In this document: positions 2,661 through 63,589 of the stretch, piece after piece | Layout: each line of letters starts with the position of its first letter | How positions within the stretch are numbered: position 1 is the stretch's first letter | Source of the DNA: Leucoraja erinacea | Lineage: Eukaryota | Length of the DNA: 64,000 bases | Reading direction: 5' to 3' | Assembly (NCBI RefSeq): GCF_028641065.1 | Contig: NC_073398.1 | Coordinates: forward strand, 11,036,001-11,100,000 | Position numbers and translations under genes: made by a program | Notes under the pieces: generated by a model | The model's database searches: none | What the model saw: only the letters and a program-made list of their open reading frames with translations | Told to the model about the DNA's origin: nothing

Positions 2661-3468
2661 ATAAGGCATCCAACAAACAGGGACAAATGAAACTGCAGAT
2701 GCTGCTTGACAAAAAAGGACAGAGTGCTGGAGTAACTCGGTTCAGGCAGCATCTCTGGAGAACATGGACGGGTGATATTTTGGGATGGGATTTGAGGGCC
2801 CATTGAAAGGAGTAGGATGAATGGAAAATTACGGTGGACACCAGTGTCCTTGCTCATCCTGCCGAACCTTCTGTATAATGTGCTGGAGAAACTCAACAGG
2901 TCAGGCAGCATCTGTTGAAGGAACAGTCAGGTGATGTTTCAGGCCAGGATCTTTCTCGAGACTGGTTGTAGTAGAGGTTTGCCTAGTCATCTTGCGTATC
3001 TGTCGTTTTGCCTTTTTCCTGGCCTTTTCTGACAGGCACCTAATATATTGCTACACTAAACTATATTCTCAGAGATGATTGAGGATTAGACAACAATCAT
3101 TTGAGGTTTAAAGTACCAAATTGCTTATGTTAATTTAATAATCATTCAATGGCCAAAGGCAATCATAAGCACTAGCCTACTTTGGCTCCGCAGGAGTAAT
3201 TACAACAGCGCACAGCTACAGATAAAATAGACCGACATTGGCACCACAGATTTTATAATAGCATGTCTGTATGAACAATTTACAGGATGTTGTAGCTTGC
3301 ATTATTTATCACCATGAGCTGACAAGAAAGAATAAATGGTGATTGTACATACAATGGCTGCAGTCGGAGGTCTATCACAGATGGGTGCACAGACAGGGCA
3401 GAAAGTCTTCAAAGAAGCACTGAGAGTATCACAAGCAAGAAAAGTCTTAGGAACAACCAAACTCTAAA

Positions 3469-3610
3469 TTTGTGTTGGAAGGAATGGCAGATGCTGGTTT
3501 GAACCGAAAATAGAGCAAAAAAAGCTGGAGTAACTCAGCGGGTCAGACAGCATCTCTGGAGAAATGTAATAGGTGATGTTTCGGGTCGAACTGAAACGTC
3601 ACCTATTCCA
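3469..3610. mobile_element. Penelope-derived fold-back insert with 10-bp TSD
   Basis: aaactctaaa at 3459-3468 and 3611-3620; arm sequence shared with other copies. Confidence 0.7.
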
Positions 3611-4612
3611 AAACTCTAAACTTCCCAGTAACACAGATTCTCAAGATATTTTGATGAATGGTTAGGGTACATTCAGTCATAGCAATGTGCAATGTATGGT
3701 TGACATAACACTTAACATTGTCAATGTTTATATTCTGATTAAAATGTTGATCAAAAAGTGATGTAGACTATCCTATGGATTGTCAACCTATGGATTCTTT
3801 TATGAAACATCCAACATGAATTGTAGTCAGTTTACCCTCCAGATATCAATGGCCATTTTAAACAGCTGCAGCCTCATCACATATTTGTCAGGTCAATGAA
3901 TTGGAAAAAATAAATTCTGTTCCACTGCCAACAATCTGTTTTCATCATCTTAATCCTGACTCTGTGACTCTTGACCGACTAGTCTAAGTAACTCGAATCT
4001 TTATAAATTCCATGTAAGGCCTATATTAGGATTACTTGGATAAACTTGTGTCTATCTTCGATTTAACCCAGCTTTTTGCAGTTCCTTCTTATACACATTA
4101 GGATTACTTAGAACAGGCTTTTTCCAGAATCAATGAACAAGATGAATTTCATAAATACTCCAACGAAGCTAATGTTCCCAATACTCCTGATGTTCATATA
4201 TGGGTAATGTGATACGTTCATGTGATAGGAGCGGAATTAGGCCATTCTGTCCATCAAGTCTACTCTGCCATTCAGTCATAGCTGATCTATCTCTCCCTCT
4301 TAACCCCATTCTCCTGTCTTCTCCCCATAACCCCTGACACCCGTACTAATCAAGTGTTGCTCCTGTAATACACTAATTCAGAGCTTTACCATAAAACTGC
4401 ACCAAACATTTGGGATATGGTTCAGTTTAACCACTATTCCGGGCAGTGGGTGTTGGTCTGAAGGAGTAGACCCATCAAAGAGGAGATTTTCCACGGGCTA
4501 CACTGGGCCTCGAGCTTGGACAATTTACAGTCCATATTTGGCAGATCTAGTTGTCATCTCTCAGGGATCCCCAGAAATGGTCTTTGGAAATACGATGCAC
4601 AGCATTCTGAAC

Positions 4613-4746
4613 CAGTCTGAAGAAGGGTCCCAAACCAAAATGTCACCCTTCCTTTGTCTCCAGAGATGCTGCCTGACCCACTGAGTTACTCCAACATTTC
4701 GCTTCTATCCACAGTATAAACTAGCATCTGCAGTTCCTTTCTACGC
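4613..4746 (+). mobile_element. Penelope-derived terminal arm with degenerate hammerhead motif
   Basis: ctgaagaagggtcccaaaccaaaatgtcacc...ccagagatgctgcctgacc...gcatctgcagttcctt. Confidence 0.7.
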
Positions 4747-7700
4747 ACCATGAACCCAATACAGATAGCACATTTATCCGGCACCACTCAGTACACCAGG
4801 TCTCATCACTCAACCACCAACAATCACGATTAATAAGGGCATGTTCATAACTTCAAATGCTTCACTCTACCTTTCTACATGTTATAGTGGTACAAGTTTA
4901 ACACTCATGACCTACAGCCTGCTGTGAATATACAACAGCCACATTAATCAAATGCATTAATGTTGCTCCCAGGTTTTATCTCACCTTATAGTCAGAACAC
5001 AGGAGGTCATTCAGTCGACTAGGTCAATGCTGGTTCTCAATGAACTATCCAATTATTCCCACTGCCGCATCCTTAATTCCCTCTACCCTGCAGTTCATTA
5101 CCCTTCCCCTATGACCATCAACTCCTCTTTAAGCAAAACACAAACTGCTGGTGAAACTTTGAGTTCCTCCAGCACTTTGTTTTATTTCTCAAGCTTCAAG
5201 CATCTGCAGTCTCTTGTGTCTCCATTTGCCGGACACAAGACAATTGAATATCACATTACAGCCAAGGGCAAGCCGACCCACACTAGGAATGGGAGACGGT
5301 TAGTAGAAAGTCAGGGATTCACTCCGATTATCGGTCTTCTTGTCCATCAAATCATATCCAAACAATAATTAAAACTGTTACAGATAAATAAAATACCTCA
5401 GACGTAATAAAATGCAAAAAGATGAAAGGCACAAGAAGCCACCCCAGAAGCAACTGCTGCCGAACAGAGCCATGTTTAAGAGACTACTGCTTAAAGGCTA
5501 AAGTATAGGGTTGCGAATATCAGAATGCCTATTCAAAAGATATAGAAGTGGACGTTGCCGGATCGAGTAGGCTAAGTTTTCCTATGTCGAACCTGAGTGC
5601 TGTGTACAATATATTCAGGACTTTCTTACCTGAGCTGCGCAAGAGTATATAGCCACCATAGCATAGCTCTACTGGCATATAGAAATCGATTCATTCAATA
5701 GTGCACAAAGCACTCTACTCGAGTGTGATTTTTTTTTCCAAAAAAACCAATCACAATAAGTGGACAAATGAAACAGTACGTGGAGTAACGCCCGAGAGGC
5801 TCGTGCGCCACGAGACGTCACACTATAAGACATGGACAGCTCGTAGCACGTTTGCTAAAACGGCCAGGACTCAGCGAAACGCAAGACGTACGTCGACAGG
5901 ACTATTTATACACTATGTTGCAATAAAATGTCCGTTGAAGCGCAGAAGACCGAAGGTCTACCCATACTGATAAAGACGGCCTACTCACCAAAGATCGTGA
6001 TACGTTGTATGTGCGATTCATTCAAGCGCCGCCAGACAGCCTCGTGGAAGACTACTTAGAATGAAATCGCAGTAAAGTGAGACAGCTTACCGACTTTGAA
6101 ATGAGTGCAAATCGGTTGGCCAGGCTATGCAATCGTGCGGCCGTCTCTGATCGACCGCCGCTGCTTATTATGAAGACATGCTCGCACCTCTTTTTGTTTC
6201 CTCATATAGAATCCCTTGATGCGTGAAGGAGGTCTAGTCCCGTGAATGAGAACCAAGCAGCACCTGTTCACCCCCCCCTTTTTTTTTATCTCTCCCTGTT
6301 ATGTACGTATAGTCTCTTTACATATTCACATAATTCTGTCTCCCCCCTTTATACTGTGTGACCCTGCAGCAAAGCCAAGAAATCTCATTTTCCTCATCCG
6401 AGCCGACATTAATGACAATAAAACACTACTGCAAGCTACGTTTTCTAGAAAGAATTTGATCTCGACTATGACCAATAGTCACCCATTCTTCACTATCCAG
6501 ATGATAAGCCTAGCCTGTGGCTACCCACTGAGATTACTCCGCATTCCTGTGCCCCTACCACATTTTGTAACCCTCCTTTACCCTTCCTCGATAGTAGTTC
6601 AGCCTGCTTGTACAGAAGAAACAGGCAATAGCAAAGCTCGTGAAACCAGTCAGACACGCCTCCTAACTGTACACTATTAGAAGCGTTCAAGAGCACGTAA
6701 TTTGTACTATTCATTCCTATTCAGAAGATGTAAATTGCCAGCACATTGCCACCTCACAGTATATGAATTGAGCACACTATATGTCCTCGCTTTATAACCC
6801 AGACCCGGGACTCAACTGTTGCCCACGACAGGGCCCTACCGCACTGTATATTGCCCAGACTCGTATGTATAAAGACGGAGCCTATATATATGATAATACA
6901 CCACTAAAAAATGTGCTTAGCAACCTAAATAAAATAAGGTGGTTACTAACTAATTTGCCAAGATATGCGGCAATTTAAGCGCTAGAAGCCTTGGTCAGCC
7001 GTAGCCAACATGCCTACAATGGTACACTGCTTCTTTTCTCTTAATGGTGCTAGATAGATATTCACTCCTTGACCTGTCCTCGATGTCATGATTTCAAGCT
7101 CATCGAATGATGCCCCTGATATATCAAGATCACTCCAGCACCCATTTGACGCTATCACCACGGTATTCTCCAAACCTGGCGCCAAGGCAAGATGATGCGT
7201 TGACTCAGGAGACCCGCTCAGAATGTGCAAGATCCAAGACGGCGCCTAGGAAGCACTTTGGTGAGCATAGTCATTCAGAACCAGATGTGACCACCGCTGC
7301 CCACAGCCCTGCCGCCCTGTAAGTGTTGAGCCAGTAGCACCCCTTTCCCTGCCCTCGAACTTTCTCAATGATAAGGATGGACCTCTGCCCCCCCTAGTTT
7401 CACTCATTGCAGATGGCATGCCCATGCGGATTACCAGAAAGGGAGCCCCCGTTAGATACAAAGGCATGTCTCCAGTGCTTGCCCCATTGTACCCACGAAC
7501 CCCAGATTGCCGATGACAATATATCTGCTTGCTACTGCAAAGATTAATTCTCGTGGTGCCCGAAGGACATTGGCCTATGCATGAATCTATACCTTCAACC
7601 CACTCTTCATGCATACCAGGTACTCTGCCTACTGAAATCCGACTACTCGTATACACACCTTTAGCTCGCAAAGGATATCGGCCGAGTAAGCCGACGTATC

Positions 7701-21690: not shown

Positions 21691-23227
21691 CTCTGAGAAT
21701 TATTCAAAGAAAAAAGTGAGTGTAAATGTCCCAAAATCTCTTGTTTATGATGAGGTGGCCCACTGGGCAAGAATAATATTGTGTTAATTCTGAATCACGA
21801 ATGATGAGATGCATCTACTGAACTCTGAATCGGATCACAAGTAATTAGTCATCACAGGACATCTCAGTCTGGAAGGAAGAGGTCTAGAGGCAATCTAGAA
21901 ATGCCGAAGAAACTACTGAAACATATTCATCTGAATTGCCGCAAGGAAATGAGTGCATCGCAGATAAAATTCATGGGTAAAGTGTTTCCGAATCAAGTTG
22001 CTGACAAAACCAAATGTGGCCCAATTTATATGTGCCCTATATAATAGTAACCTGCAACTGAAAATGTGGGGGTTTGAGTATGTATCTCCAGCATCTGCAT
22101 TGATAACAACATACACCTGGAGCAATTCATCCATAATATGCATATTACAGGCTCAAAAAATGGAGAGAATTTTTATAACATGTACTGGCCTAATTATTTT
22201 GCATCCTAATAACTGTACTTTGCTTCCAGGCTATATTTGGTCTTCAACCATCATGCGCAGTGACTTAAAATATTGGTCAGTTTCTAGTGAAATAGCAAAA
22301 CTTATGCCAAGGAATCAGTAATAATAAAGGCTAGAAATTCAAAGCCCCTCAAGTGGTTTGATCTTGCTTCAGTTATTTTCACAATATTTGTAAATGATTT
22401 GCTCCCATCTCCACGCTAGAGGAAGCATACAGATGTTAATTGCCAAGCTATAAGACATACATTTCTGAAAAAGTGAAGGCAACTTGAATTCATCAATGTG
22501 AAAACTACCAGAATGTCAAGGTCACCCTGTCAGTACAATTCCATCCTCAACATCACAATATGGGGAGGTGCTTCATGAGGGTACACAACCCTTTGTGCCT
22601 GTTCTGCCATTCACTATCATAGCTAAACATCTGCGCCAGGTATATGTTTCTGTCCTACTTATAGATCCCCTGAGCTCCTTAAAGCCCAAAAATCCGCTCA
22701 TCTCAAATATATTCAGAGATGGAGCATCCTCGATTCTCCAAGGTGGAGAATTCCAAATATTTTGTCATTTTTCCTCATGTTTGTAATCATTTATTGTCTT
22801 TATGCTGGCGGCGTAGCACATAACATAAGCTTTTCACTGTACCTTGGTACACGTGACAATAAACTAAACTCAAACTGAAACTAAACTCAAAATTATCAAT
22901 TCCTTTTCCCGAGATTCCATTCCCCGGTGCCTGAAGAAGGCTGTTTACCCGAAATGACCTATTCCTTTTTCCCCACAGATACTGTCTGACCCACTGGGTT
23001 ACTCCAGCACTTTGTGTCTGTCATTCCCGGGTTCAAGATTGTTCAGCCAGGGGTAACATCCACTCGCCATCAATGATGTCAACCCTCAAACTGATCTCCA
23101 AGAAGCACCTCGGCATTGCAGAGGGTGACGTGTCTACCTGAACAAATGCTGCACATTGATCAAAAAGGACACTACAAGATATGCTATTTTTAACACATTG
23201 TGAAGGATGACATTAGTGATTATGATC

Positions 23228-26361: not shown

Positions 26362-26535
26362 GTGTGTCGGAAGGAACTGCAGATGCTGGTTTAAACCAAA
26401 GATAAACACAAAAAGCTGGAGTTACTCAGCGGGTCAGACAGCATCTCTGGAGAAAAGGAAGGGCCTCGACTCGAAATGTTACTTATTCCTTTTCTACAAA
26501 GATGCTGTTTGACCCGCTGAGCTACTCCAGCTTTT
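26362..26535. mobile_element. Penelope-derived fold-back insert
   Basis: Inverted arms gctggagttactcagcgggtcagacagcatct / agatgctgtttgacccgctgagctactccagc. Confidence 0.75.
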
Positions 26536-31061: not shown

Positions 31062-32106
31062 GTGCCAACTTGGCGGTAAGGCACCATCTATGGAGGGAAT
31101 AGATAGGCAACTTTTCAAGTCGGGACCTTTCTTCAGATCAATTCAGTCCAATCGGTTTGAAGAAGGGTCCTGATCCAAAAGAACATCTATCCATTTCTTC
31201 CACAGATGCTGCCTGACCTGCTGAATTATTCTGGCATTTTGTGTTTTGCTCAAACTCCATTATCTGTAGTTCTTTGTGCCAATATTTTATTATTGCTATT
31301 ACTAGCTTAAAAATACTTCAAAAATGTACAGAGCAATTTGCATCATTGGCTTTCCAGAAGTTGGGTCATTCGTAACCTAAGGAGTGCCTGTGAACTATAT
31401 GTATATGCAGCTTTGATTTATTCTATATTGACAAGGCTATTCCGCAGAAACATGATTTTACCGGGTTCTGTGCAAAACAAAGCATTTCACTGTACCTACA
31501 GTAGGTACATGTGACAATAAAGTATCGTTGAATCATTGAATCATTCATATGAAAACAAAATTGCAATGGAATATATGTTATTCATTGATCTCTATGTGAA
31601 TTCACTTCAGACTCTGAAAACTATATTCACTATTGGAACAGTACTTTGGACATATGAAGTATGAAGTTTGGGCAAATTGATGCAACGTTAACAATTGTCA
31701 GAGAGGTGTACACAACTGTCATTATGCAAAATGAAGAAAGGTTCTCGGTGATGTTGTTAGATCAGAGCTTGAGGGCAATGCACTTGGATTCAGAGCAGTT
31801 CGAGCTGCATCCTACATCTGATCAGGTGCACATATATCATCTCCCGAATTAACGACTAATATAAGGGCCTCATTGTCCTCTCCCATGTCTTCTAAACCCC
31901 CCTCCTCACCGATATTTCCTGAAACCTGCAGGATGGTAGCGGTCAAATGAATCCCTCTTTGTCAGATCCCCACGAATCAATAAATTACATTCCCATTGGC
32001 CGAACATGGTAGCCTCCCACATATAGCAACGGGAAGGACCTAATGACCCCTGAGGGGCTTTATCTCAATGCTTCCCTTCAATGCTAGCCTCCTCAATTGA
32101 GCTGTT

Positions 32107-32355
32107 TAAGAAGGAACTGCAGGTGCTGGAAAATCGAAGGTAGACAAAAATGCTGGAGAAACTCAGCGGGTGAGGCAACATCTATGGAGCAAAAGAAATA
32201 GGCGATGTTTCGGGTCGAGACCCTTCTTCCAAAGGATCTCCTGCGAACCTGTGCGTCTTTCCGAAGAAGGGTCTCGACCCGAAAGGTCGCCTATTTCCTT
32301 CGCTCCATAGATGCTGCCGCACCGGCTGAGTTTCTCCCAACATTTTCGTCTACCT
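32107..32355. mobile_element. Penelope-derived fold-back insert with 17-bp TSD
   Basis: tcctcaatWgagctgtt at 32090-32106 and 32356-32372; inverted arms with hammerhead-like cores at 32201-32229 (-) and 32261-32290 (+). Confidence 0.85.
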
Positions 32356-32829
32356 TCCTCAATAGAGCTGTTGCCTGCAATGGAGCTTTGCATGAATCTG
32401 TGGGTACTATCTTTGGCTCCCATCTCCCCAAACACTCAGAATCACCAGTAGGCACACCACTGCTGATTAAAACCATCATTAGGAGCCTGCTACGGATATA
32501 TACTCACCATTAATTCAACAGACAAGACAAGGTCATAGCAAGCTGGAGGATATAGACATAAAATCCACCTCAAATATCTAACAGCATTTGATAATGATAA
32601 GAAGCTACAGAAACCTGGCACATGTACTGTGTAGCATGTTCTGAACAAGATAATTCATTCTTCACTGTGCAATCACCTTAGTAGCCATATGAACTCAGAA
32701 GGTAGGACAGAGGAGTGAAAAGAGTAGGAGGTGAGAAATGATGGATGTTTCTGTACATGGTCTAAATTGTTTATGCTCAATGGAAGGTTTATAGCTGAAT
32801 TAGTTATCTCACCTAGTAAAAAGAAGCTA

Positions 32830-33050: not shown

Positions 33051-33077
33051 TGTGCCGCCTGGAAAAAGGAATCTACT

Positions 33078-33320
33078 TACAATAGACAATAGCCAATAGG
33101 TGCAGGAGTAGGCTGCACTCCCTCAATAGCAAGAATGTCCTTCCTCAAATTTGGAGACCAAAACTGCACACAATACTCCAGGTGTGGTCTCACTAGGGCC
33201 CTGTACAACTGCAGAAGGACCTCTTTGCTCCTAAACTCAACTCTTCTTGGTATGAAGGCCGACATGCCATTTGCTTTCTTCGCTGCCTGCTGTACCTGCA
33301 TGCTTACTTTCAGTGGCTGA
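33078..33320 (-). mobile_element. Internally deleted CR1 fragment
   Basis: LYRALVRPHLEYCVQFWSP...ILAIEGVQ joined directly to the terminal cctactcctgcacct(attgtct)n tail. Confidence 0.85.
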
Positions 33321-35084: not shown

Positions 35085-35375
35085 GATGGGGTAACTCAGC
35101 GGGTCCACCATTTCTGGAGAACATGGTTAGGACTGGAGAACATGGATGTTTCGGGTCGAGACCCTACTTCATGAGTTTGAAGAATCTATTCCTTTTTTCT
35201 AGAGTTTCTGCCTGACCCGCTGAGTTACTCCAGCTTTTGTGTCTAGCTTCAGTGTAAACCAGCATCTGTAGTTCCTTCCTATACATGGATAGGTGATGTT
35301 TTGGGTTTGGACACTGTAGCAGGGGGGAGAAACCCAGAAGAAAGGTGTGGAGCGGGACAAAGCCTGGCAAGTAAT
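35085..35375. mobile_element. Penelope-derived fold-back insert(s)
   Basis: Arms plus gatgtttcgggtcgagaccc core. Confidence 0.7.
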
Positions 35376-38413: not shown

Positions 38414-38654
38414 TAATGCCCCTGTCCCACTTAGGAAACCTGAATGGAAACCTCTGGAGACTTTGCGTCCCACCCAAGGTTTCCGTGCAGTTCCCGGAGG
38501 TTCCCGGAGGTTTTTGTCAGTCTCCCTACCTGCTTCCACTACCTGCAACCTCCGGCAACCACCTGCAAGCTCCGGGAACCGCACGGAAACCTTGGGTGGG
38601 GCGCAAAGTCTCCAGAGGTTTCCGTTCAGGTTTCCTAAGTGGGACAGGGGCATT
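38414..38654. mobile_element. PIF/Harbinger-like MITE with long TIRs
   Basis: About 80-bp near-perfect TIRs (tgcccctgtcccacttaggaaacctgaa...), flanked by TAA and TTA. Confidence 0.85.
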
Positions 38655-39515
38655 AACTCACCATCACTAAGGTTGGCGACAGCAAGAGAAGGTCCAACCC
38701 TCACTGCACCATAAAGAATAAAAAGAGAAAGAAATGTGCCCATGGGGACAGCACCAAATACAGTAATCATTATTGTGCAGTCACCTGTCAAACAACCTGG
38801 TTGATAATTAGTCTTTTGAAGCCATTGGGACTGAATGTACTCATGGAGTTTAGCATAGATCCACACCAATATCTCAAAATCATCCAAAATAACAGGCAAT
38901 GAGAGTTATTTTATATATTCCCTTTTAATGTATCTACATGAATCATGCCTTTATTTTTTTTACTGACTATGCCTTCATTAAAAGGGCCACTTATGTGTTC
39001 ATTTAAATGATAATTTAAGTAGGGCAAAACCTTGGCTGCTTTCATGGTACTTATGTATAATGGGCAGCTGAAGTTTGTCCTTCACTGTGAGGTCTACATT
39101 TAATAGACTGTGCTTAAAAGAGAGTGCAGGGAGATAGTCGTGACTGAAATTGGTGACACTGGGAATTTAACATTGATGAAAAGGATGTTCTTGTATTACA
39201 ATATTATCGTGATAACTAATTGAGCAACAGATAGAAGGCCATACTAAAACATATATGTAAATAAAATATAATGATGGGACAACTGAGACCTACAGCCTGT
39301 GTTGTGTAGTTACTCCAAGATTCTTCCTGCATCTGAATGACCAAAAAGTAGGAATACCTCCAGTTGCTCACACTCAGGTTCAGAGCTTTTAAAGGACTGA
39401 CTAGGTATATTGTATACTGCAATATTACATGTTTCAAGACACATTGCAGCAATACTAAGAATGAAAGGCTGGTTATGTGGAAAGATCAGAGGCTGTTTTT
39501 TGTTCAAGTTAGACC

Positions 39516-40640: not shown

Positions 40641-41140
40641 ACTGGTTCAAAGCATGAACATCTTTGAGCGTGTACATGAAGCAGAATGTAGAAATAAGGA
40701 ATTGCAGATGCTGGTTTACAAAAAAATGACACAGTCCTGGAGTAACTCAATGGATCAGGGAGCATCTCCGGAGAACATAGGCCGGTGACATTTTAGGAAG
40801 GGGACCCTTCCTCAGACGTAAAGCAAAATAATTTTCAAGATCAGATTGGTCACCACCAAAGGAATCACATTTATGGATATCATTCAAATAATCTGAGAGA
40901 AATGAGGAAACTACTGTGCTACTTTATGAGAGTGTTCTCCATTTAACTCTTTAATTGGGTGTGGGGGCAGAAGTCATTATAATTTTCAAAGAGAACTAGC
41001 ATTTGTAGGGGGAAACAAAGCAAGGCTTTAGAGATAGAGCAGGACATTGGGTGTAGTCAGATCATTCTATCAAAGGAATTTTACAATTAAATGCATCAGT
41101 AAACAAGGTGAAAACTCTAAAGGATACCAATGATTTTTGA

Positions 41141-41347
41141 AGATAGACGAAAAATGCTGGAGTAACTCAGTGGGACAGGCAGCATCTCCGGAGAGAAGAA
41201 AAGGTGACGTTTCAGATCGAGACACTTCTTCAGTCTGAAGGGTCTCGACCCGAAATGTCACCCATTCCTACTCTCCAGAGATGCTGCCTGGCCCGCTGAG
41301 TTACTCCAGCATTTTGCGTCTATCTTCAATTTAAACCAGCATCCTGC
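41141..41347. mobile_element. Penelope-derived fold-back insert with perfect 15-bp TSD
   Basis: accaatgatttttga at 41126-41140 and 41348-41362; inverted arms meeting at back-to-back hammerhead-like cores. Confidence 0.88.
41203..41233 (-). ncRNA. Minimal hammerhead ribozyme-like motif (core intact, stem II decayed)
   Basis: Minus strand reads CTGAAGA A GTGTCTCGATCT GAAA CGTC ACC. Confidence 0.5.
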
Positions 41348-43129
41348 ACCAATGATTTTTGATATGCACAAATGATATCCTAAAACATAAGAACTGAATA
41401 TTTGATTTTGGAAGCATCCAACTTTTAGAACTTTCAACCCAATAACCTAATTTCCCAAAACCTGCTTATCCTAGAGCAACATTGAAAAACCAAAGGTCCG
41501 TGTGCTACCAAAGCCTGGACTAAACTAACCTCAGCTTACTCCTTATGTTTAGTGTCCAGCACCCAAACCAATCCAGGAGTTAACAACAGAACGAAAGCAA
41601 AGTATAGAGTGAACATTAAATTGTTAAATTAACATTTCTTGTACAGTTATTCTAAACACCCCAATTAAAATGAACTATTTGAATATTCTACAGAACAAAT
41701 TATAAGATCCTCAACAATAACCAAAATCAACATCCTTTCATTTGTTTGATTGCTGTTTCAAATCAAATTAAAATTAAAATCTAAAAGCAAAGCTGAATAT
41801 ATGATTAATATGGATGTAAAAATCAGAGCACAAGACAAAACCAGCCTGTTAAACAGAGAGTAACAGTTTCGGGAGACAGCAAAGTGGGTTGTGGTAGACA
41901 GTGAGTTCTGGGGAATTAATGCTGGCAGGGAAGGAGATGGTAGATAAATTAAGCAGGTATTTCACATCAGTCCTCACCTCAGAGGAAATATGTAGTATCC
42001 CATAAACAATTGTAAATTAAAAATTGGAAGGGGTGGAGAGATTCACCAAGGAAGTGGTGCTGAGCATACTATCAGAAATGCACGTTCCTTGTCCCCAGGT
42101 CCTGAAGGACTATTCCATTCTATTACTCTGGAATGGTATCTCAGTATGGTGGATCATTTCCCACACTCACTTGAGGCCACCAAGCCAAGGATTTTACTGT
42201 TTAATTGGGGCCTCATTATATGCTTGTTAATGACCTTGGAACTGCCCGCCTCCGTCAATGTTACATCAAGAAACGATAAAGACTTTGGATTTAGGATCCG
42301 GGCAATTCCCAAATATTCGGCAAGCAACTCAGTGTCTCCCCACATCTTTCCCAGTGTAATCAAAAGAATTCAGTGACTAACAAGACGTGTAGGGATTTGG
42401 AAACTACTTTCACTGCAAGATCGACTGAAAATGTTATGTGTATTTGCAGCAGCAAGCGAGTTTACAATGAAGTACAAATATTAGAATGGACAGGCACATA
42501 GTGCTGGAGTAACTCAGCGGGTCAGGCAGAGATGGGGGGGAAAGAAAGCTTGAGGAGTTCCTCCCACCCCAGCATCATTCTGAAGAAGGGTCACGACCAG
42601 AAACGCCACCTCGATGCTGCCTGAGCCGCTGTTAGCATTTTGGTAACCAGATCATCTGCATTTCGAATGATATTCCTCTATTCGCTATTATAACGCCTGA
42701 TAAATTAGTGCAAAAGTAGGTTTATTTATTAATTTATCTTGCTTAGAATTGCAAGGTTTTAAATTGTGACCAATACATTTTTGCAGTATCTATGAACAAG
42801 ACTAAAGTTTTTTTTTTTTTCCCCACGGTTGGAATGGCGCAAATGCAGGATCCCTTTGAGGTTGCTGCCTAATACAGCCATGCCACAGCAGCCACCAGAG
42901 ACCCTGAGTAGTTCGATCCCGATTTAAATAGGATGAAGAATATTATAAATGGATACGGAGTTTTTTAGTGATTATTACGTTCCCCTTTACCGTGATGGTT
43001 TTGTTCATCCGATGAGGATGACGTACCAGATCAGTTGAAGGTTATTCCTCTATTGGCTATTGGCCTGAAATGTAAAAGTAGGTTTATTTTATTAATTTAT
43101 CTTGCTTAGTCCCCAATAGTATTCAACAA

Positions 43130-43376: not shown

Positions 43377-44436
43377 AATAAACTATTAACACATTCTAGT
43401 CTTGTTATCTTAAAAACAATAAAAGCCAAAAGAAGAATGTTCCACTGATCAAAGCTTTATATTGCCTTATACATCATGCACCATATTCCCCACGGAGAGC
43501 TCAGATGCTGCTTGCCTGTATCCGTGCAGGAGAACAATCAGCTACAACTCCTGGTTACAGCTACTTATTGGCACAAAAATAGTGCTGGAAATCTAAAGTA
43601 AATAAAGTAAAGTTCCATTCGGGGTCTGACCGTAAGTACTGACCTAATATTGTCCTTCAGAGACTTATCAACTTATCAATGGAGAAGTTCCTGTGAATTA
43701 TGCTTGCATATGCTAGCTCATGATTCCCTTCATAATCTGAACAGCTCATTATACATAAAGCACTCATATTATATTTCAATATATCGTTTTGCATATAGAG
43801 CAGATGATCAAAATGTTAATGTATTCACTTCATTTAAAAATGTTCATCAATTCAAAGTTGTAAATAAAGAACACAATGTGATATAGAATTTACACGAGTT
43901 GTGAACTCAGCCGAGGATAATACAAATATGACTTCATCCTTCAATATAACCAGAAGCACTCACTGTATAAATATACAGCAGTAACACTCATGGGACATCT
44001 CCTTGTGATGGCAATGACCAGATGTCAGGGGCTGAGAAAGCAGGAAGGGAGAGGAATGGAGAATATGAGCAAATACAGGAACCATCCAGGCGAAAAACAA
44101 AATAATAAAAATGTTTAGCAAAACAAATGCAAGAATGTAATTGTCAAACTTAAGAAAAATAGGAAAGGAAGAAAAATAAATAGTATATTATAAATAGATG
44201 AGGGAAAAATTAAACAAAATGAAAATCTGATAATATTTGAAACTTGCATTGCTCATTCATGTTCAACACCTTTTTGCTCTAAATATTTACATGAGTTTTC
44301 AATGAAGATAGCCTGTTTATAATTTTTGCAGTGCAACTAACTCCCATTGAATGTGCTAGAGTACACTAATGTTGGAAGAATAATCATGGTGGTAAAAGTG
44401 ATGGCAAAGACAAAGGCATGTACCAATCTCCCAAAA

Positions 44437-44595
44437 TGTGTAGGAAGGAACTGCAGATTTATACCAAAGATAGATAGAAAAAACTGGAGTAACTCAGCGG
44501 GTCAGGCAGCATCTCTGGAGACCCGAAATGTCACCTATTCCTTTTTGCATGAGATGCTGCCTGATCTACTGAGTTATTCCAGCTATTTGTGTCTA
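44437..44595. mobile_element. Penelope-derived fold-back insert
   Basis: Inverted arms; caatctcc on both flanks. Confidence 0.75.
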
Positions 44596-45216
44596 ACAAT
44601 CTCCTAATCTTTGTGAGGATGAATATCAGTTCGTTGGAGAGCTATCTCCATTTCACTTTCAACTTTTCATCTTTTACCTATTTCTGCCCACTGCTTCAGC
44701 TCACATCTTTGACTTCTGTTTTAATCCTCAGTCTAGGCATTGGAGCAGCGTTCAGCTTGCTCCTTTTCCTATCGTTGGTAAAATCTTCAAATAAATCATC
44801 TTGCCAAAGCAGCGATTGCATCAAATGACACATTTGTAATGGCAATTTCAATTAGAGGAGTAGGCAGATATAGGAATTTAAAGTACTTGAAAACAACGTC
44901 TGATCTGAGAATGGTAAATGAGCTGCAGTTCTGCACCTGCTAAACAAATCCCTTTTCATAATCAGTCACACAGCACGGAAACAGATCATTCAGCCCCAAC
45001 TCATCCAAGCCTAACACGATGCCCCATCTATACACGACCCATGTGCCTGCATTTTCCAATATCCCTTGAAACCTTTCCTATCCATGCACCTGACTTATGT
45101 CATATACATGTTGTTATTTATTATACCTGCCTCAACTACCTCTGCTGACAGCTCTTTCTTTGTACCAAAGTTTCAAAGATTCACCACCCTCTGAGTGAGG
45201 ACATTTCTTTCTGTTT

Positions 45217-45403
45217 TAGGTACACAAAAAAGCTGGAGAAACTCAGCGGGTGCAGCAACATCTATGGAGCGAAGGAAATAGGCAACGTTTCGGCCCGAAA
45301 CGTTGCCTATTTCCTTTGCTCCATAGATGCTGCTGCATCCGCTGAGTTTCTTCAGCTTTTTTGTGTACCTAAGATTTTCCAGCATCTGCAATTCCTTCTT
45401 AAA
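45217..45403. mobile_element. Penelope-derived fold-back insert, near-perfect palindrome
   Basis: Centre ggcaacgtttcggcccgaaacgttgcc with ~75-bp arms; follows a CR1 tail at 44960-45205. Confidence 0.85.
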
Positions 45404-46089
45404 CTCATTTTGTTTTAGTCCTGAATCGCTTATTGTGAGATTCCCACTACTGCCAGGTGAAACACTGTCTCAATTTAAGAAGAATTTTGTATGTTTAAAT
45501 GAGGTCGGCCCCCATTTATCTAAACTCAAGACAGTATACCAGCCCACTGTGGAGGTTGCTGGAAGGGGAATTCACAGTAGGAATTCTGGCTGGCCATTTG
45601 TTCCACCTGACGAGTATGGCTAAAATTCCTGGGAGCGAGATGTGGAAAAAGACATAAATCATAGCTTGCAACCTTACTTGGCTACTTTGAAACAGGCATT
45701 GGCCATCAACAGGTGTTACAGAGAAGATTGCAGAGTCGATAAGACAAGGACTAGAAGCCCAAGGGGTTTGTTAGTGGGATCAATTACAGCAAATTCCAAC
45801 AGTCTGTGAATACTGGCCCAAACTGTCTTTAGTTTAGAAGAATGAGATTGCCCCTGCGGCGAGACTTCAGCTGCATGTGGAGCTAATGTTTTGTTTGGCT
45901 TTCATATTTTACAACAAAATAAAACATTTTTTTTGGTTCTATGACACCTTTATATATAATCACCCCAAGGCACCCACAAAGTTTGTTTATCAAACAACCA
46001 GTCACATAAAACCACATTAGGGCAGATAGCCACACATTGGTCAAAGAGGTAAACCTCTAAAAACGAGAAGTTTAGGGAGGTAATTCCAG

Positions 46090-46255
46090 TGTAGAAACAA
46101 GGAACTGCAGATGCAGGTTTACAAAAGAAGGTACAAAGCACTGGAGTAACTCAGCAGGTCAGGCAGCATCTCTGCAAGACATGGATAGGTGATGCTTTGG
46201 GTCAGTACCCTTCTTTAGACTAGCGAAACAGTCTGAAGGGTCCCAATCCGAAACA
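46090..46255. mobile_element. Penelope-derived arm(s)
   Basis: Family arm plus degenerate core on both strands. Confidence 0.7.
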
Positions 46256-47847
46256 CTCACACAGAGTAAGTCAGCAAGACCAGCCAGGAGGGTTTTACCA
46301 AGATCAGGTCTGGAGATAACATGCGGACTAGGGTTTCACCAGCTAATGATAAAAAGTAGGTTGGAGCCTGGCATACATTGAAGGAGAAAATAAGCAGTTG
46401 TACTGATTGTGAAAATACACAGTTATATGTTCACCTCAGAATCAAGTATTACTAAAGTTGTAAATAGTCTGATTCAACTTCCAGTAGCAACTAGAGGAGG
46501 CTTAGAATCAGTGGCCAGAGAGCAGTGAGTGTAGAATGCTTCACCTGGACAATTACAGCCTCAGAATTTTAGGTATAATCTGCAGTCTTTCTGTCTTGTT
46601 CACTGGTATTGGGCTTTTTATTCCTCTGATCAGTAATTTGTTGTTTTTTTTACACAGAATTTTAACATGCCAAATGGTTTCATTCGGCAATTACTTTCCG
46701 GTTAGAATAACTTCTTCATAATACATTCTGCCATCTGAAACAGTGCTACACATCCCTGTAGAATTCATATCCACCACACATCTGCACATCCTGATCACAT
46801 TTTCTGTAAGCCTATAAAAAGGCAATCTCTTTAAAAAGAATTTATACAGGAAGTATAATCCAACCGAGTTGGTTGTTTACCAAATACAGAAACCAGAATC
46901 TTAATAAACTCCCACTGGGTTTACTAAAGCAATTAGCAAGAGTTAAAGTAATGAAATGTACTCTGAATACTATGTATAGTCTGATCTTAGCCAATATATT
47001 GAACCCAATGTTTACTTAATAGTAATTTAACACTGTCATCTTTTAATACCATATTTTCACTTTAGCAGCAATCTAGCAGAATGTCAATTGCATTATGAAA
47101 TGCTATAATCTTTATGCCTTAGAGATAAGTATAAAAGCAAAAGCAAACAAGGAAAGCGCTGTCCAGATTACAATGAATGACTTTACACAATCAGTACTAG
47201 TCATAATATGGTAGGCATTGCATGTATAGCTTTTTCAATGGACCACCCTGCTGTGAGATTATGGCATTTCCCTGTGAGTCTGATGAAATGTTATTTTAAA
47301 GAAGCCTTGACTGTCAAAGGTTTCAGTGCTGGAAAATGGAACACATTTTCCGGTTTAGGTATCCAAAAGCATCATCGAACATTCCCAAAGTTACCAATAT
47401 GATTCACTAGTGCATACATTAGCCCATTTAGCCTACTTCCTGAGCAGGCCTTAACATCAGTATGCTTTGTGTTATTACACACTTTCTGTTAATATCTCAC
47501 ACAGTAAATTTCTCCATCTACTGCAGAGCAAATGCAAGTTTAGTAACAGACTCAGACTGTTTGCGCTGCGGACTTTAACCTTGGGGGTGAATTGGGGGAA
47601 GGTAGGTAAGAGATAGGCTCTAATTGTTTCTGTTTAATGATAACAGAGATTTGATTGTCGTATTACAGATTGTTCATTCATAAACTCCCCATGATTAACG
47701 GAAAATCTGAAGATTCAGAAGTTGCATTAAAAAGGTCCAAAATTGTGACCCTTGTAACCAAAGATGTCTGAGCTGGGTTTGGGATGCATGAATTGAACGG
47801 GCAACAACACCATCTAGCCAATTGATCTGATGGACTGATATGAGCAA

Positions 47848-51783: not shown

Positions 51784-53310
51784 CTACAAGTCTGTTTCAG
51801 TGTTGGGAATCATACAAAGTGCGTATAATGACTTCCTGATGTCCGGGGTGCTGTTGGCTTTGCAGTGTGTCCCTGGGCCATGATTCACCCCATCGCCGTT
51901 CTCTAAATGGTTGCCAATGGAGTTTCTGCTCTTCTTCAGATCTTCTGAGATGCTGCTCTCAACTTCGACTTTGTCGATAAGGTACTTGGCTTGTTCTTCA
52001 TTGTCGTTCTCCCGGTGGTAGAAGTAGTTGAAGTTGGACACGATGACGGGCACGGGCAGCGCGATGGTCAACACCCCGGCGATGGCGCACATGGACCCCA
52101 CGATTTTGCCCGCCACGGTGATGGGCTTCATGTCCCCATAGCCCACGGTGGTCATGGTGACCACTGCCCACCAGAAGGCGTCGGGGATGCTGGAGAAATT
52201 TGACCTGGGGTCATCGGCCTCGGCGAAGTAGACAGCGCTGGAGAAGAGGATGACCCCGATGAAGAGGAAGAAGATGAGAAGACCCAGCTCCCTCATGCTG
52301 GCCTTGAGGGTCTGGCCCAGGATCTGGAGACCCTTGGAGTGCCTGGAGAGCTTGAAGATGCGGAACACTCGGACCAGCCGGATGACCCTGAGGATGGCCA
52401 AGGACATGGCTTGTTGCCCGTTGGCTTGTTGCTCAGCCATCTCGGTGCCCAGGGTGATGAAGTAGGGGATGATGGCCACGATGTCAATGATGTTCATGAT
52501 GTCCCTGGCGAAGACCGGCTTGCTGGGGCAGGAGAAGAAGCGCACCAGCAGCTCCATGGTGAACCACACCACGCAGGTGGTCTCCACGATGAAGAAGGGG
52601 TCGCTGAGGCTGTCCCCCGTCGAGCCCCTGGTTCCGTTGGCCGTGCGGTTGTAGTTGTTGTGCCTGTCGTCGCGGAACTCGGGCAGGGTCTCCAGGCAGA
52701 AGATGATGATGGAGATGACGATGACCAACACGGACACGATGGCGATGCAGCGGGCCGGGTTGGAGCTCTCGGGATACTCGAACAGGAGCCACAACTGCTT
52801 CTGGAACTCGCGGCGAGGAAGCTGCCGCTCCTTCTCCTTGATGAAGCCCTCGTCCTCCCCGAAGCGCTCCATGGCCTCGGGTCCCAGGCGGTAGAAGCGG
52901 ATCTCGTCGGCGAACATGTCGATGGAGACGTTGACGGGTCTGCGGACTCGGCCGCCCGACTGGTAGAAGTAGAGGATGCCGTCGAAGCAGGGACGGCTGC
53001 GGTCGAAGAAGTACTCGTTGCGCAGCGGGTCGAAGTAGCGCAGCCGCTGCAGCGGGTCGCCCAGGAGGCTGTCCGGGAACTGGCTGAGGGTAGCGAGCCG
53101 GGTCTCGTAGCGCAGCCCCGCCACGTTAATCACCACCCGCTCGCTGCACTCGTCCGGCCGCCCCCCAGCCCCAGCCCCAGCCCCTGGCTCGCCCATGCCG
53201 CCCTCCTGCTCCCACCAGATCCCTCCTCCTCCGCCGCTGCCCGCACACCTGCCGCCCGCCGCCGCCGCCGCCGCCTCGCCCTCCTCCAACCTCAGCAAGG
53301 CGATCTCCAT
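51784..53310 (-). CDS. KCNA5: Voltage-gated potassium channel Kv1.5 (Shaker family), single coding exon, 508 aa
   Basis: T1 domain ([14 protein letters not shown]...[13 protein letters not shown]), S4 ([25 protein letters not shown]), filter TTVGYGD and S6 PVPVIV. N-terminal MEIAL and C-terminal SLYALC...ETDL PDZ ligand are characteristic of Kv1.5. The ORF track starts at a GTG (53319); the first in-frame ATG is 53310 in strong Kozak context (AGCATGG). Confidence 0.95.
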
Positions 53311-53900
53311 GCTCGACACATTAAATATTCATCGGCGGCGCCGCCTCGCTCAATCCGCCGCAGCGAATGGTCGGCAAGAGGCAGGAGAGAGGTGGGTGAG
53401 AGGGGTAGAGAGAGAGAGGGGGGGGAGGGAGAGGAGGAGGGGGAGGGGAGGAGAGGGGGGGGGGGGGGGGGGATGGAGAGAGGGAGGGGATGGAGACAGG
53501 TGGAGAGATGCGACAGGGAGAGAGAGAGACGGAGGATTGAGAACCGGCTCCCAGCCAGGACGAGACAAACTCACGGGCTATCCCAGTGCCCGGCGATGTA
53601 AACACACGAGATGAGTTTGACAGAAACCTGGTCCACTTCTCTCACTGTCTCCCGGCCAATCATCCACCCCACGTCCACGTCCTCTCCTCGACACGACACC
53701 TGTCCCGTCCCACAAGGTGCAGCCTCTCTCCCCCTTCCCGCAGCTTGAACACAGCACTTGCTCCCTGGCTGAAGCCACCCCGTTCCTGTAGCCTGTTCCT
53801 CCCGAACCCTACCTCCGCTCGCTGTTAACCCCGACTTCAATCAGCCCGCCAGCTCCCCAATCTCCTCGCCTCCCTTGTCCAAATCCCGGACCCTGCTAGT
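52000..53900. promoter_or_regulatory. CpG island over the KCNA5 5' region and most of the CDS
   Basis: Very high GC and CpG density against a CpG-depleted background; GC drops in the last ~200 bp of the CDS. Confidence 0.75.
53375..53535. repeat. Polypurine (G/GA-rich) low-complexity tract in the KCNA5 leader/promoter
   Basis: gaga/ggga runs and a long G homopolymer on the + strand. Confidence 0.85.
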
Positions 53901-54026
53901 AGCAACGAGCAAAATCAGCAGCGTTGCATTTCCAGGAGCCAACCTTCCTGCTACTTGTCAGTGTGGAATAATTCAAATGACAGCACGAACAGCCCGACCG
54001 CAATACCCAGGAATCAAACTGTGTCA

Positions 54027-54230
54027 GACACAAAACGCTCGAGTAACTCAGCGGGTCAGACAGCATCTCTGGAGAGAGGGACGAAATGACGTTTCGGGTC
54101 GAGCTCGAGTCTGAAGGGTCTCGACCCGAAACATCACCCATTCCTTTACTCCAGAGATGCTGCCTGTCTTACTCCAGCTTTTTGTGTCTATCTTCGGTTT
54201 AAGCCGGCACCTGCAATTCCTTCCTGCGCA
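54027..54230. mobile_element. Penelope-derived fold-back insert upstream of KCNA5
   Basis: Inverted arms; centre gacgtttcgggtcgag...ctgaagggtctcgacccgaaacatc. Confidence 0.8.
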
Positions 54231-54268
54231 CCAAACTATTACTGTGTTTGCTTAGCACGCTGATTGAA

Positions 54269-55244: not shown

Positions 55245-56232
55245 AAGCACAAGAAACTGCAGATGCTGGAATATTAAGCAGAAATGCAAAGTGCAGGAGG
55301 AACAAAATGGGTCAGGCTGCAGCTGCAGAGGGAATAGACTAATGATGTTTCAGGACTGGACTAGGTTGGTAGGATGGGGTGGTGGGGGCTAGTTGGAAAA
55401 TATGTTGTAAGCTACCCAAGCAGAAGATGAAGAGCTGTTCCTCCTGTTTTCATGTCACCTCCCACCTGCAACTGGATCTCCTGGATGCTAGCCATTTTAA
55501 CTCTGTTTCCCATTCCCATACTCATACCCATTGTCTGGCATCTCAACAATGTGAGAGTGAGGCCACACACAAGCTGGAGGAACAGCACCTCATATTCCAC
55601 CTGGGTAACTCACAGCCAATAGTATAAACATCTAAACATTCAAGTAATACCATCCCCTATGCACCTTTTGTTTCCCATGCTCCTACTCAGTGCACACACA
55701 TTACTCCCACTATCTCCCACTCCCCCCATCATCCTGCTGCCTTGTCCTTCTTCATACACACATCATTGGTGAAACCCATAATAGCAGGCAGATCCTCATA
55801 TTTTACTTGGGTAGCTTACCACCCAGTGGTGTGTACATTAGGTGAACAACTTCTGTCATCACCCCCGCACCCTTCTTTACCTCCCTTCCCTGTGCCCCAC
55901 CTGGACGTGACCCATCTTTCCAATTCCTTCCTCTGGCTTTGCACATCATGCATATTCTATACATTACACTTATTGTCTTTTCGTCGATGGCCTTTGTCCA
56001 ACCATCTGCCAAACATATACCCCCCTCACCTGTATCCACCTATCACCCGCTGGGCAATGTCCTTCCCCCACCTCTCTTCCTGCTTTCTCTACACCAAAGC
56101 AATCAGTCTGAAGAAGGGTCCAGACCAAATGGTCGCTTCTCTATGTTCTCCAGAGATGCTGCCTGTGGCTGAGTTCCTCCGGAACTTTGTGTCTTCTTTG
56201 GTAAACCAGCATCTGCAATTCCTTGTGTCTAC
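55245..56232 (+). mobile_element. Penelope-like element 3' end with inverted 5' arm
   Basis: GIY-YIG C-terminal remnant ASHFNS.SHSH...EATHKLEEQHLIFHLG, pyrimidine-rich UTR, hammerhead-like motif at 56108 and terminal arm; antisense copy at 55245-55450. Confidence 0.8.
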
Positions 56233-56459
56233 ATCAGTAGAACTGTTCTGTCCACTGCATCATTCTTGCTATCAGTGAGCAGAACATGCTACAGCCTAGA
56301 GGTACCTCATCACTTAAAAGTGAATGAAGAGAAGTAGGATTCTGGCTGAGATAGTGAACAGAGCACAGATGGGAAGTACTCACAGAGACTAATAAGACAA
56401 GTTATACAAAAAATAATAATCTTAGATGAGGTGGCTTTCAGCAGCTCCTGGGTTTGTTA

Positions 56460-61014: not shown

Positions 61015-62895
61015 GGATGTAGATCACCGTTTCTCTGATGCTCTGTCACAATTTCTGGATACGCGTGGCTGGAAATGGAAATATACCTGTATGCTGGATA
61101 CATGTACACTTCACTTCTTCTTCTGGACCTCTCTGGCTCATCCCAGGAGACAGACTTGCCACTGACATTTTCTATAAACCCACTGCCTCCCACAACTGCT
61201 TTGACGAAATCTGCCTCCATTCTGACTCCTTTAAGGATGCTTTTCACTCAAATTCTCCATCTCCACTACATCTGCTCTCAAGACCAGGCCTTCTCCTTTA
61301 GAGCTTCTGAAATGCTTTCCCCCTTCCGGAACATGGACCCCCCCCCCCCCCATCCTCTGCTTGATGGCTCCATCACACACATGTCCTCCATTATCTGCAC
61401 CTCTGCTCTGACCACACCCCAACCCCTTCCCCTGACATAATAGCAATAATAGCATAATAGCAGAGACTAAGACTTTTGCCTCCATCACAGTGAGGAGGTG
61501 CTTGGTGAACTCACTGTGGTGGATCTTAATTTGTGTTTATTGTATGTTTTGTTATTTATTATTATATGTATGACTGCAGGCAGCGAAATTTCGTTCAGAC
61601 CGATAGGTCTGAATGACAATAAAGGAATGTAATCTGATTAGATTAGATTAGATCTATCTAATTAGGAGGTCCGGGCCGCTGAGGAGGATTTTCACCGTCG
61701 GGGTTCGGCGTTGGCGTTCCATCAGCCCGGCGAGAGGGCCTGAGCATCGGGCCGCCCGGGGTGGCGACTGCGGGTGCTCAGAAGGCCCCAACCACGGGTG
61801 AACATCTGGGAAGATCGGAGGGGAGGCTGGCTGGACTATGGTGCCTTCCTCACCTTGGTGCCATTGTGTTATGTTGTGTCGTGGACTTTCTGTGGTTGTG
61901 CTTTTTTTTAAATTCTATTTTATTTTTAATATGTTTTATTATTTATTATTTATTTATTTTTATGATACTGACTGTAAAGGGAAATTCATTTTGTTACCTC
62001 TAATTGAGACAATGACAATAAATTTGAATACAATACAATACTAATCTAATAGACATTCCTTGGTGTTCGCCTTTGAAGCTACTTGCCTCTGCATGCAACA
62101 CTTATCTGCCATCATTTCCACCAGCTCCAATCAATCCCACCATCAGTTACATGTTCCCCTCTTCTCCTCTTTCTGCTCTCTTCGGGACTCTCTGTTCCAT
62201 TTGCCTTTTCCCACCCACCCCAGCGCCTCTCCCTGCAACTGTAAGAGATGTCATGCCTATCCTTCACTATCTTCCGTGGACCCATACAGCCTTTCCAGGT
62301 CAGGCAGTGGTTGACCTGTATTTTTCCAACCTGGTCTACATGCATTTGGTTCTCACGGTGTAGCTTACTGGACATTGGCAAGACCAGGCACAGACTATAT
62401 AACGGTTTTGCAGAGGACCTGTGCTCTGTCCACAAAGGCCACCTAGCTTGGCCAGCTGCATATCATTTTAACTCTCTTCCCACTCCCATACCGACCTGTC
62501 TCTCCTCAACCCTCATCATTTTTTATTGGAAAGCCAAATACAAATTGGAAGAATGTCTCATATTCTGCTTTTATAGCCCATAACGCAACAATATGAATAA
62601 TTAATTTTCCAATTTCACCTCCAGTGCTCTTCTCCCACACACACTCAACTGACCGCCCAGTTTTCTTCTCCCTTTGTTCACCTTTCCCATCCCCTCCCTC
62701 CCTCATTCCATCTGCCCGTACCCCCCTCCCCATCTGGTCCACCTGTAACCTCTATCTGATCCTCCTTTATACTGCTATAAACTGGCAAAAACTGGCAATC
62801 TTTCCTGTTCTCTCTCAGTCCTGATATCAGGTCTCCACCTACACCTTTTGCCTCCACAGACGCTGTTTGACCGGTTGAGTTCCTCCAACAAGGGT
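61015..62895 (+). mobile_element. Degenerate Penelope-like element (RT thumb + GIY-YIG), interrupted at ~61445-62045
   Basis: GDRLATDIFYKPTASH (RT C-terminus) and GPIQPFQVRQWLTC...RCSLLDIGKTRHRL...FAEDL...YHFNS...KLEECLIF (GIY-YIG endonuclease), followed by a degenerate terminal arm. Confidence 0.8.
61445..62042 (+). mobile_element. Two tandem non-autonomous retroposon 3' parts
   Basis: Each ends in a stem-loop, gacAATAAA and microsatellite ((gatta)n at ~61636, (aatac)n at ~62027). Confidence 0.65.
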
Positions 62896-63238: not shown

Positions 63239-63247
63239 TCTGCAGCG

Positions 63248-63568: not shown

Positions 63569-63589
63569 GGCTGTTTATAGACACAAACT

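Follow-up and report, generated by a model that had tools for sequence, protein, structure and literature searches.

Head-to-head hammerhead repeats in Leucoraja erinacea as likely by-products of Penelope-like element insertion

The insert at 41126-41362 and its surroundings

We analysed a 64,000-nt stretch of Leucoraja erinacea DNA (the window; NC_073398.1, forward-strand positions 11,036,001-11,100,000), to which all positions below refer. Its surroundings include one channel-type frame:

51784..53328, minus strand: single long ORF of Kv1 type, read from the sequence

This ORF presumably encodes a Kv1 (KCNA)-type potassium channel, and an Rfam K_chan_RES RNA-editing signal lies within it at 52033-52146, above its gathering score. 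The open frames at 15615-16169 (+), 30699-31142 (-), 33077-33721 (-), 56426-56860 (+) and 2281-2853 (-) appear to be CR1/L2-like fragments of LINE RT tails. Palindromic MITE-like elements at 38414-38655, 15103-15311 and 63243-63573, with a short CTGTCCCACT-like terminal motif, are unrelated to the hammerhead repeat described here, and inverted-repeat inserts of other families occur at 21210-21489 and 19583-19650.

The sequence at 41126-41362 is a single insertion, in which two head-to-head arms (minus then plus) of a repeat of ~135 nt stand between 15-nt target-site duplications (TSDs). The original prediction had placed its limits correctly: they coincide exactly with the far ends of two flanking 15-nt direct repeats that match perfectly. 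From left to right the insert comprises:

41126..41140, plus strand: left TSD, 15/15 identity with 41348-41362, a pairing that beats all 300 random position pairs
41141..41239, minus strand: left arm, putative pLTR end in antisense (nhmmer E 3e-28)
41206..41233, minus strand: minimal hammerhead motif of the left arm, both boxes and C-G/UC intact, stem II damaged at 3 positions
41229..41239, no strand: junction palindrome where the arms overlap, TTCAG-T-CTGAA, 11 nt, containing TCAGT
41229..41347, plus strand: right arm, putative pLTR end in sense (nhmmer E 8.5e-33)
41235..41259, plus strand: minimal hammerhead motif of the right arm, box 1 with a 3-nt deletion, CpG change at C15.2
41348..41362, plus strand: right TSD, same pairing test against 41126-41140

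By inspection, the element end also matches the final ~4 nt of the left TSD (microhomology). The left arm terminates at a 'short' 3' site, about +95 counted from C3, and a one-sided tail of ~19 nt is present on the right arm (41329-41347). Across 102 columns the two arms are 86% identical. For the insert as RNA, folding predicts a single hairpin of -133 kcal/mol (z -19) that leaves ~20 nt unpaired at its 3' end, in agreement with the long hairpin originally expected of a read-through transcript. The further claim that this hairpin masks the ribozyme fared less well: stem II is indeed absent from the predicted fold-back (probability 0.00), yet it reaches just 0.01 in the isolated arm, so the comparison argues only faintly for specific masking.

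Contigs from four public sequencing runs concur with the family consensus, and 166,000-183,000 family contigs were aligned per DNA-type run, counts and summed depth here being signs of great abundance and not of copy number. In the family contigs of run X14, stem-restoring letters account for 65% (41224), 82% (41216) and 38% (41214) of summed depth. Position 41256 reads C in 50% of the summed depth of family contigs, which at 41236/41237 carry an inserted GAA or a loose end. The insertion is apparently common to organisms D and E, the 31-letter bridging rule being passed only by the right junction in D, and no empty-site allele was found among the joints listed from the sequencing-run contigs.

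The repeat family and its arm ends

An HMM of the repeat, built from 10 window copies and reaching just 8 nt upstream of box 1, gave 43 matches in the window at E<=1 and 34 at E<1e-5 (0, 0 and 1 in reversed and shuffled controls). The repeat occupies 3,725 bases, or 5.8% of the window. Neighbouring matches no more than 120 nt apart form 15 pairs, 13 of them head-to-head, one tandem and one tail-to-tail, the last attributable to a nested insertion. The description as a high-copy fold-back repeat is borne out, and the motif sites originally listed were all recovered (4617, 32261, 41233->41206 on the minus strand, 41235, 42580, 54111 and 56108, with 22932 corrected to 22931). Family members outside the 41.2-kb insert and the two long copies treated below are:

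3459..3623, no strand: fold-back centred on stem II, with TSD, box 1 absent from both arms
4612..4751, plus strand: solo copy (nhmmer)
22928..23040, plus strand: solo copy (nhmmer)
26362..26535, no strand: fold-back, junction with short overlap (nhmmer, centre analysis)
31075..31287, no strand: fold-back, both arms beginning ~9 nt ahead of box 1, with the least damaged motif, 31136 (-)
32084..32372, no strand: fold-back flanked by a TSD, its arms separated by 30 nt of unrelated sequence
35145..35287, no strand: fold-back inserted into an earlier member of the family, TSD of 8 nt, short arm ending at the GUC position (by eye)
42464..42642, no strand: degraded fold-back containing the 42580 motif (nhmmer, centre analysis)
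44433..44598, no strand: fold-back, both arms without box 1 (nhmmer, centre analysis)
45224..45403, no strand: fold-back centred on stem II, arm identity 93%
46085..46254, no strand: fold-back, right arm very short with box-1 deletion (nhmmer, centre analysis)
54020..54234, no strand: fold-back containing the 54111 motif, box-1 deletion on the right arm (nhmmer)

The sites at 4617 and 22931, which had been counted among the fold-backs, are both solo copies. Nor does each fold-back place one motif on each strand, as had been supposed: by eye, the first-box region is present on both arms in about 5 of 12 (31.1k, 32.2k, 35.1k, 41.2k and 46.2k), and in many box 1 is missing from at least one arm. 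One LINE-like fragment abuts the 31.1-kb fold-back and has probably cut its left arm. An identical 3-nt box-1 deletion is found at 41235, 46233 and 54111, all in fold-backs, with a full box on the partner arm in two of the three; it may mark a subfamily or reflect slippage.

Arm ends are not evenly distributed. Among 34 arms, the 3' end lies at +121 or beyond in 16, at +93 to +103 in 7 and elsewhere in 11, giving two main classes ~33 nt apart, and fold-backs often combine a long with a short arm. Short-arm ends off the +95 site fall at +27, about +30, +36, +61 and +82. Family contigs are consistent up to the long 3' end, beyond which the consensus is lost. TSDs are about 13-16 nt in length. 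Of 12 fold-backs, 3 have a TSD that outscores every one of 300 null pairs, 2 reach p 0.067 and 7 show none above noise. For solo copies, TSD scores of 8-9 were obtained in 2 of 13 stretches, scores also attained in the null set, by 20 and 10 of its 300 pairs.

At the 5' side, 18 of the 34 arms reach +3 or farther upstream, and 14 of these 18 stop at about -9 to +3 (by eye). A crude constant-hazard test on 11 of the 18 gave p 1.6e-9 for this pile-up. The pile-up itself may be inflated, because the UTR upstream is of low complexity and difficult to recognise and the HMM stops 8 nt before box 1. The pentanucleotide TCAGT precedes box 1 in ~2,000 contigs in each of 3 DNA-type runs; farther upstream these show merely an AT-rich plurality, and the consensus of run X7 upstream of TCAGT is C-rich, like the copies that continue. 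We take TCAGT, placed just before box 1, to fit the initiator consensus; following a pyrimidine tract, it fits a splice acceptor as well. An Inr-like TCACT has been described in a rotifer pLTR (PMC3846280), and the Penelope element of D. virilis has an intron whose end falls at helix I (PMC4209133). Completion of stem I by splicing, as in D. virilis Penelope, was considered here and found no supporting evidence. No pile-up of 5' ends was seen at the cleavage site: only 2 of 34 arms start 3 nt or less from it (about chance), and cleaved RNA is for this reason seemingly not the usual template. The identity between partner arms ranks anywhere from 1 to 32 (the 35.1k pair being chimeric), which does not separate one template from two.

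The hammerhead motif and its link to a Penelope-like element

Column majority across the family reproduces the consensus of the original prediction, namely CUGAAGA, an extra A, a 4-bp stem II, GAAA, C-G and UC. Stem II opens in the majority with G10.1-C11.1, and its loop is a mixture of CUCG and CCCG. The family majority likewise fits the proposed Penelope-type minimal hammerhead of type I, in which helix III is palindromic and dimerisation is predicted to be needed. The full set of minimal elements (CUGANGA, stem II, GAAA, palindromic 15.2-16.2 and UH) is present in the family majority and in 0 of 18 single copies. Stem I amounts to 2 contiguous bp in the window majority (UG/AC side: U-A, G-C), below the expected 4-5 bp, with a possible further 3 bp beyond a 2x2 loop; the original prediction had not mentioned this shortness.

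That every copy in the window would be defective was also correct, with all elements retained in none of the 18 core-spanning arms. Box 1 survives in 7 of these, four stem II pairs in 8, GAAA in 12, and GAAA together with C-G-U in 1. A relaxed test is passed by one arm of the 18, 31136 (-), which is without the ACGU palindrome and without G10.1. In the window a strict hammerhead descriptor found 0 intact motifs, its sole relaxed match being at shuffle level (5/30 shuffles), and an Rfam search found no hammerhead families at E<=5. The motif is real at the level of the family and not in individual copies.

Decay is concentrated at CpG. Two CpGs lie in the core, C11.1-G12 and C15.2-G16.2, and at the latter 6 of 25 copies read CG, 7 CA and 7 TG; over all CpG columns 83 of 235 cells are altered. 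Non-CpG changes in the core (13/179) do not differ significantly from those in the best downstream block (117/1074, p 0.18), whereas they are fewer, at 7.3%, than the 17.7% (409/2305) of all other non-CpG columns pooled (p 1e-4). We read this as a core better kept through selection in source lineages, with copies that would then decay neutrally, a pattern compatible with some selection on the copies too. Stem variants in the window are mostly decay. In an energy model without core terms, the predicted dimer fold reaches -12.7 kcal/mol, whereas a competing dimer reaches -20.8.

Motif pattern scans returned 0 in viral contigs (two scans), 0 in prokaryote genomes and one distant locus only in metagenomes, and a protein-based locus search of viral contigs also gave 0. 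The metagenomic locus (L001, 191-645, minus strand) carries a distant Penelope-like endonuclease end followed by an intact minimal hammerhead, with the same core and the same C-G-U-C, different stems and a stem I of 4 bp. Rfam did not detect this intact motif as a hammerhead.

Minimal hammerheads have been described in the pLTRs of metazoan Penelope elements, including Neptune, Poseidon and Xena of fish (Cervera and De la Pena 2014, PMC4209133), where motif pairs lie on opposite strands ~100-700 bp apart and most copies are truncated and solo. The present motif resembles those in having both boxes, the extra nucleotide at 9/10.1, G10.1-C11.1, palindromic 15.2-16.2 and no helix III, and is unlike them in its stem II (4 bp versus 7-8) and stem I (2 bp versus 4-5). 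Cartilaginous fish are not named in the parts of that study covered by our search.

Two longer copies connect the repeat with coding sequence:

55460..56237, plus strand: decayed endonuclease C-terminal end, pyrimidine-rich UTR, hammerhead at 56108, tail
61140..62890, plus strand: second long decayed copy with RT thumb region, cysteine linker, GIY-YIG region, pyrimidine-rich UTR and degenerate hammerhead

The first copy is preceded by an inverted arm at ~55249-55461, and its motif at 56108 lies ~480 nt downstream of the EN stop. A tblastn search with a shark RT-GIY-YIG protein (P0026) matched 55469-55618 at 52% over 50 aa (E 9e-9). The second copy, which includes an arm at 62844-62890 and is interrupted by another insertion at about 61440-62100, was matched by a shark RT-GIY-YIG protein across 61140-62580 (E 4e-14 and 6e-8). 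RT followed by C-terminal GIY-YIG is present in the window only as decayed remnants, and no intact ORF was seen. With the 55.5-kb peptide, phmmer returned 24 matches, 22 of which appear to be elasmobranch-type PLE ends as judged from 6 inspected; the inspected relatives include proteins of Rhinoraja, Hypanus and Rhincodon, and the closest named ones are from sharks and rays. In Rhincodon and Stegostoma, longer relatives match both RT and GIY-YIG and contain a linker of the form C-x4-C-x2-C.

The Pfam scan covered 22 of the 24 phmmer matches, the other two (P0002 and P0004) matching in a His-rich stretch only. P0026 was matched by RVT_1 (E 9e-5, below cut-off) and by GIY-YIG (23.2 bits, cut-off 22.6), and its C-x4-C-x2-C linker, of which a degenerate version lies at 62.2 kb, fits the C-x2-5-C-x2-C of Neptune type, which also occurs in Nematis (PMC8557442). 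Pfam did not recognise the 40- and 54-aa remnants, a word-based protein search with the remnants found nothing, and no solved structure matched P0026 below E 0.1. Since the repeat lies twice behind the decayed end of an RT-linker-GIY-YIG ORF (55.5-56.2 and 61.1-62.9 kb), it is, on sequence grounds, the pLTR of an EN+ Penelope-like element, one that appears Neptune-like when judged by its linker.

Two further proteins also touch on this element. A predicted neuromedin-U receptor of a skate (P0006, XP_078266213.1) ends in the element's endonuclease tail, through either exonisation or a gene-model error. At its C-terminus, a Stegostoma PLE protein (P0027) continues across the UTR into residues consistent with translation of a hammerhead motif, which hints at the same layout in sharks.

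Origin of the fold-back inserts

EN+ Penelope insertions have been described with an inverted pLTR overlapping the direct one, a palindromic junction, a 31-bp tail and a TSD (Arkhipova 2013, PMC3846280), and with an 'inverted 5'-truncated copy' and a '30- to 40-bp tail' (Craig 2021, PMC8557442). The inserts studied here share with these (PMC3846280, PMC8557442; Schostak 2008, PMC2377424) the truncated inverted copy, palindromic junction, tail, TSD and initiator-like motif, and the window shows that form in 13 of 15 neighbouring pairs that are head-to-head, in two end classes and in a firm TSD for 3 of 12 fold-backs. Unlike the published EN+ inserts, they mostly consist of two arms of ~100-135 nt without ORF, at a very high density of 5.8% of the window, and their TSDs measure about 13-16 nt versus 8-10. 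We hold with high confidence that the fold-backs are a by-product of pLTR insertion. The TSD, the head-to-head arms, the link to an ORF end and the defect in every motif were observed directly, and the insert at 41126-41362 is likely to be two head-to-head hammerhead pLTR copies left as the dead by-product of one integration event, their motifs decaying passengers. As both the motif and its back-to-back layout are already described for Penelope, the hairpin is most likely such a dead product and not a new RNA system. Regarded as a ribozyme, the find is unremarkable: Penelope pLTRs have been known to carry minimal hammerheads since 2014, and inverted tailed copies were known earlier still.

How the two arms came to face each other is less certain. 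In vitro, the anole Poseidon element PAc cuts and extends both strands, and a dimer has been predicted (Frangieh 2024, PMC11167929). The tail of PAc is set by two internal start sites of reverse transcription, hammerhead cleavage is unnecessary for insertion, and its ribozyme cuts only with protein (PMC11167929). The two end sites downstream of the present hammerhead match the two RT starts of PAc, whereas PAc belongs to another clade and has an ORF that begins in stem II, no ORF start being seen in the arm here. From this in vitro behaviour we infer priming from both target ends and joining of the two cDNA ends, a reading to which we give about an even chance. The element protein would nick both target strands ~15 nt apart, possibly as a dimer like that predicted for the anole element. 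Each nick would prime reverse transcription at one of two internal sites ~33 nt apart, yielding a tailed and a tailless arm. On transcripts initiated in the pLTR, copying would reach the 5' end of the RNA within ~100-135 nt and stop there, just before the hammerhead and probably at the initiator-like TCAGT; with such a start site, the short copies would be run-off products. The cDNA ends would then be joined through a short palindrome, either TCAG-N-CTGA or stem II, or via filler DNA. Only for the source element would the ribozyme be relevant, cutting weakly as a dimer or with the help of protein, and no intact source element was found in our searches.

A self-primed fold-back, in which the first cDNA (or an antisense RNA) folds at the palindrome and primes the second arm, has been proposed for rotifer Penelope elements (PMC3846280) and is a possible, less probable origin here. 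It would account for the 7 of 34 arm starts that lie in stem II (+10 to +16), for the palindromic centres of several fold-backs and for a 4-bp DNA hairpin that is predicted where the cDNA of the right arm at 41.2k would end. The variable ends of the short arms, also expected from DNA-templated copying, favour it over two-ended priming. The 7 of 12 fold-backs with no TSD above noise speak against the integration model given above. Self-priming sits poorly, however, with unrelated spacers between the arms at 32.2k (30 nt), 31.1k and 46.2k, and with a box-1 deletion confined to one arm at 41.2k and 46.2k. Solo copies at 27.1k and 29.0k terminate at the short site too, which therefore looks like an independent priming site.

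Readings that grant the repeat a life of its own are weaker. Non-LTR retrozymes consist of tandem direct repeats with a complete hammerhead per unit and a circular RNA, and are present in one sampled chondrichthyan (PMC7229834; bioRxiv 10.64898/2026.07.22.740005). The family resembles them as short non-coding pLTR-derived repeats with type I hammerhead motifs, and differs in that its repeats are inverted, single and defective. That the ~135-nt unit is a non-autonomous SINE- or retrozyme-like element, with its own promoter, dimer self-cleavage and regulatory masked-ribozyme or dsRNA fold-backs, seems improbable to us. Its defined 5' and 3' ends, the very stable hairpin, the descent of animal retrozymes from pLTRs (bioRxiv 10.64898/2026.07.22.740005) and the 166,000-183,000 family contigs per DNA-type run (abundance, not copy number) would suit such an element. 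So would head-to-tail joints from 41321-41327 to 41237, found in 3-16 contigs per joint and DNA-type run with the intervening sequence not covered, so that tandem forms may occur elsewhere. Against this stand the 0 of 18 intact motifs, a stem I of merely 2 bp, arm starts near the cleavage site at about chance (2/34), box 1 missing on at least one arm in many fold-backs, and 13 head-to-head pairs versus 1 tandem; this same-strand pair, the only one among 15, has both motifs defective. The abundant retrozyme-like dsRNA or self-cleaving system of the original prediction thus finds no support in the window, where motifs are not intact (0/18), CpG decay is neutral-like, repeats are non-tandem and box 1 is on both arms in ~5 of 12. 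Far less probable still is a MITE-like DNA element whose hammerhead likeness is coincidental. The failure of Rfam to report a hammerhead, a window without intact motif and the genuine palindromic elements of another kind nearby speak for it, yet Rfam misses even the intact motif of L001. The motif is also placed where Penelope hammerheads lie, the arms are asymmetric with variable centres, and two long copies tie the repeat to an RT-GIY-YIG ORF, which largely refutes this reading.

Returning to priming from both target ends, we tentatively suggest that the fold-backs are the footprint of an undescribed in vivo Penelope route in which a dimeric RNP primes both strands at two fixed internal sites and makes a strong-stop-like copy of the RNA 5' end alone, up to a start site that lies within stem I of the hammerhead. 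If so, the 5' ribozyme would be crippled in RNAs that the element's own promoter produces, a fuller stem I being confined to read-through or spliced copies. What may be new is the geometry, with arms that start at an initiator-like TCAGT before the ribozyme and end at two fixed sites. The available portions of PMC11167929 do not derive fold-backs from two-ended priming, and neither the family in cartilaginous fish nor two-ended priming of Penelope fold-backs is described in the literature covered, which lay largely outside subscription journals and Repbase. The inserts being abundant, short and sharp-ended, genome-wide counting could separate self-priming from two-ended Penelope priming and could reveal whether cleaved RNA ever serves as template. 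If the novel route is true, the origin of inverted Penelope junctions would be resolvable by such counting, given the very many inserts per genome.

The very short arms 35145-35173 (-) and 46229-46260 (+) end at or near the predicted cleavage position and resemble copies of 5'-cleavage-product templates; they are two cases only, one of them blurred by microhomology. Weak Rfam miRNA matches fall on the hammerhead fold-backs, and in such genomes hairpins of this kind may, as a side effect, yield much dsRNA and prompt many false miRNA calls.
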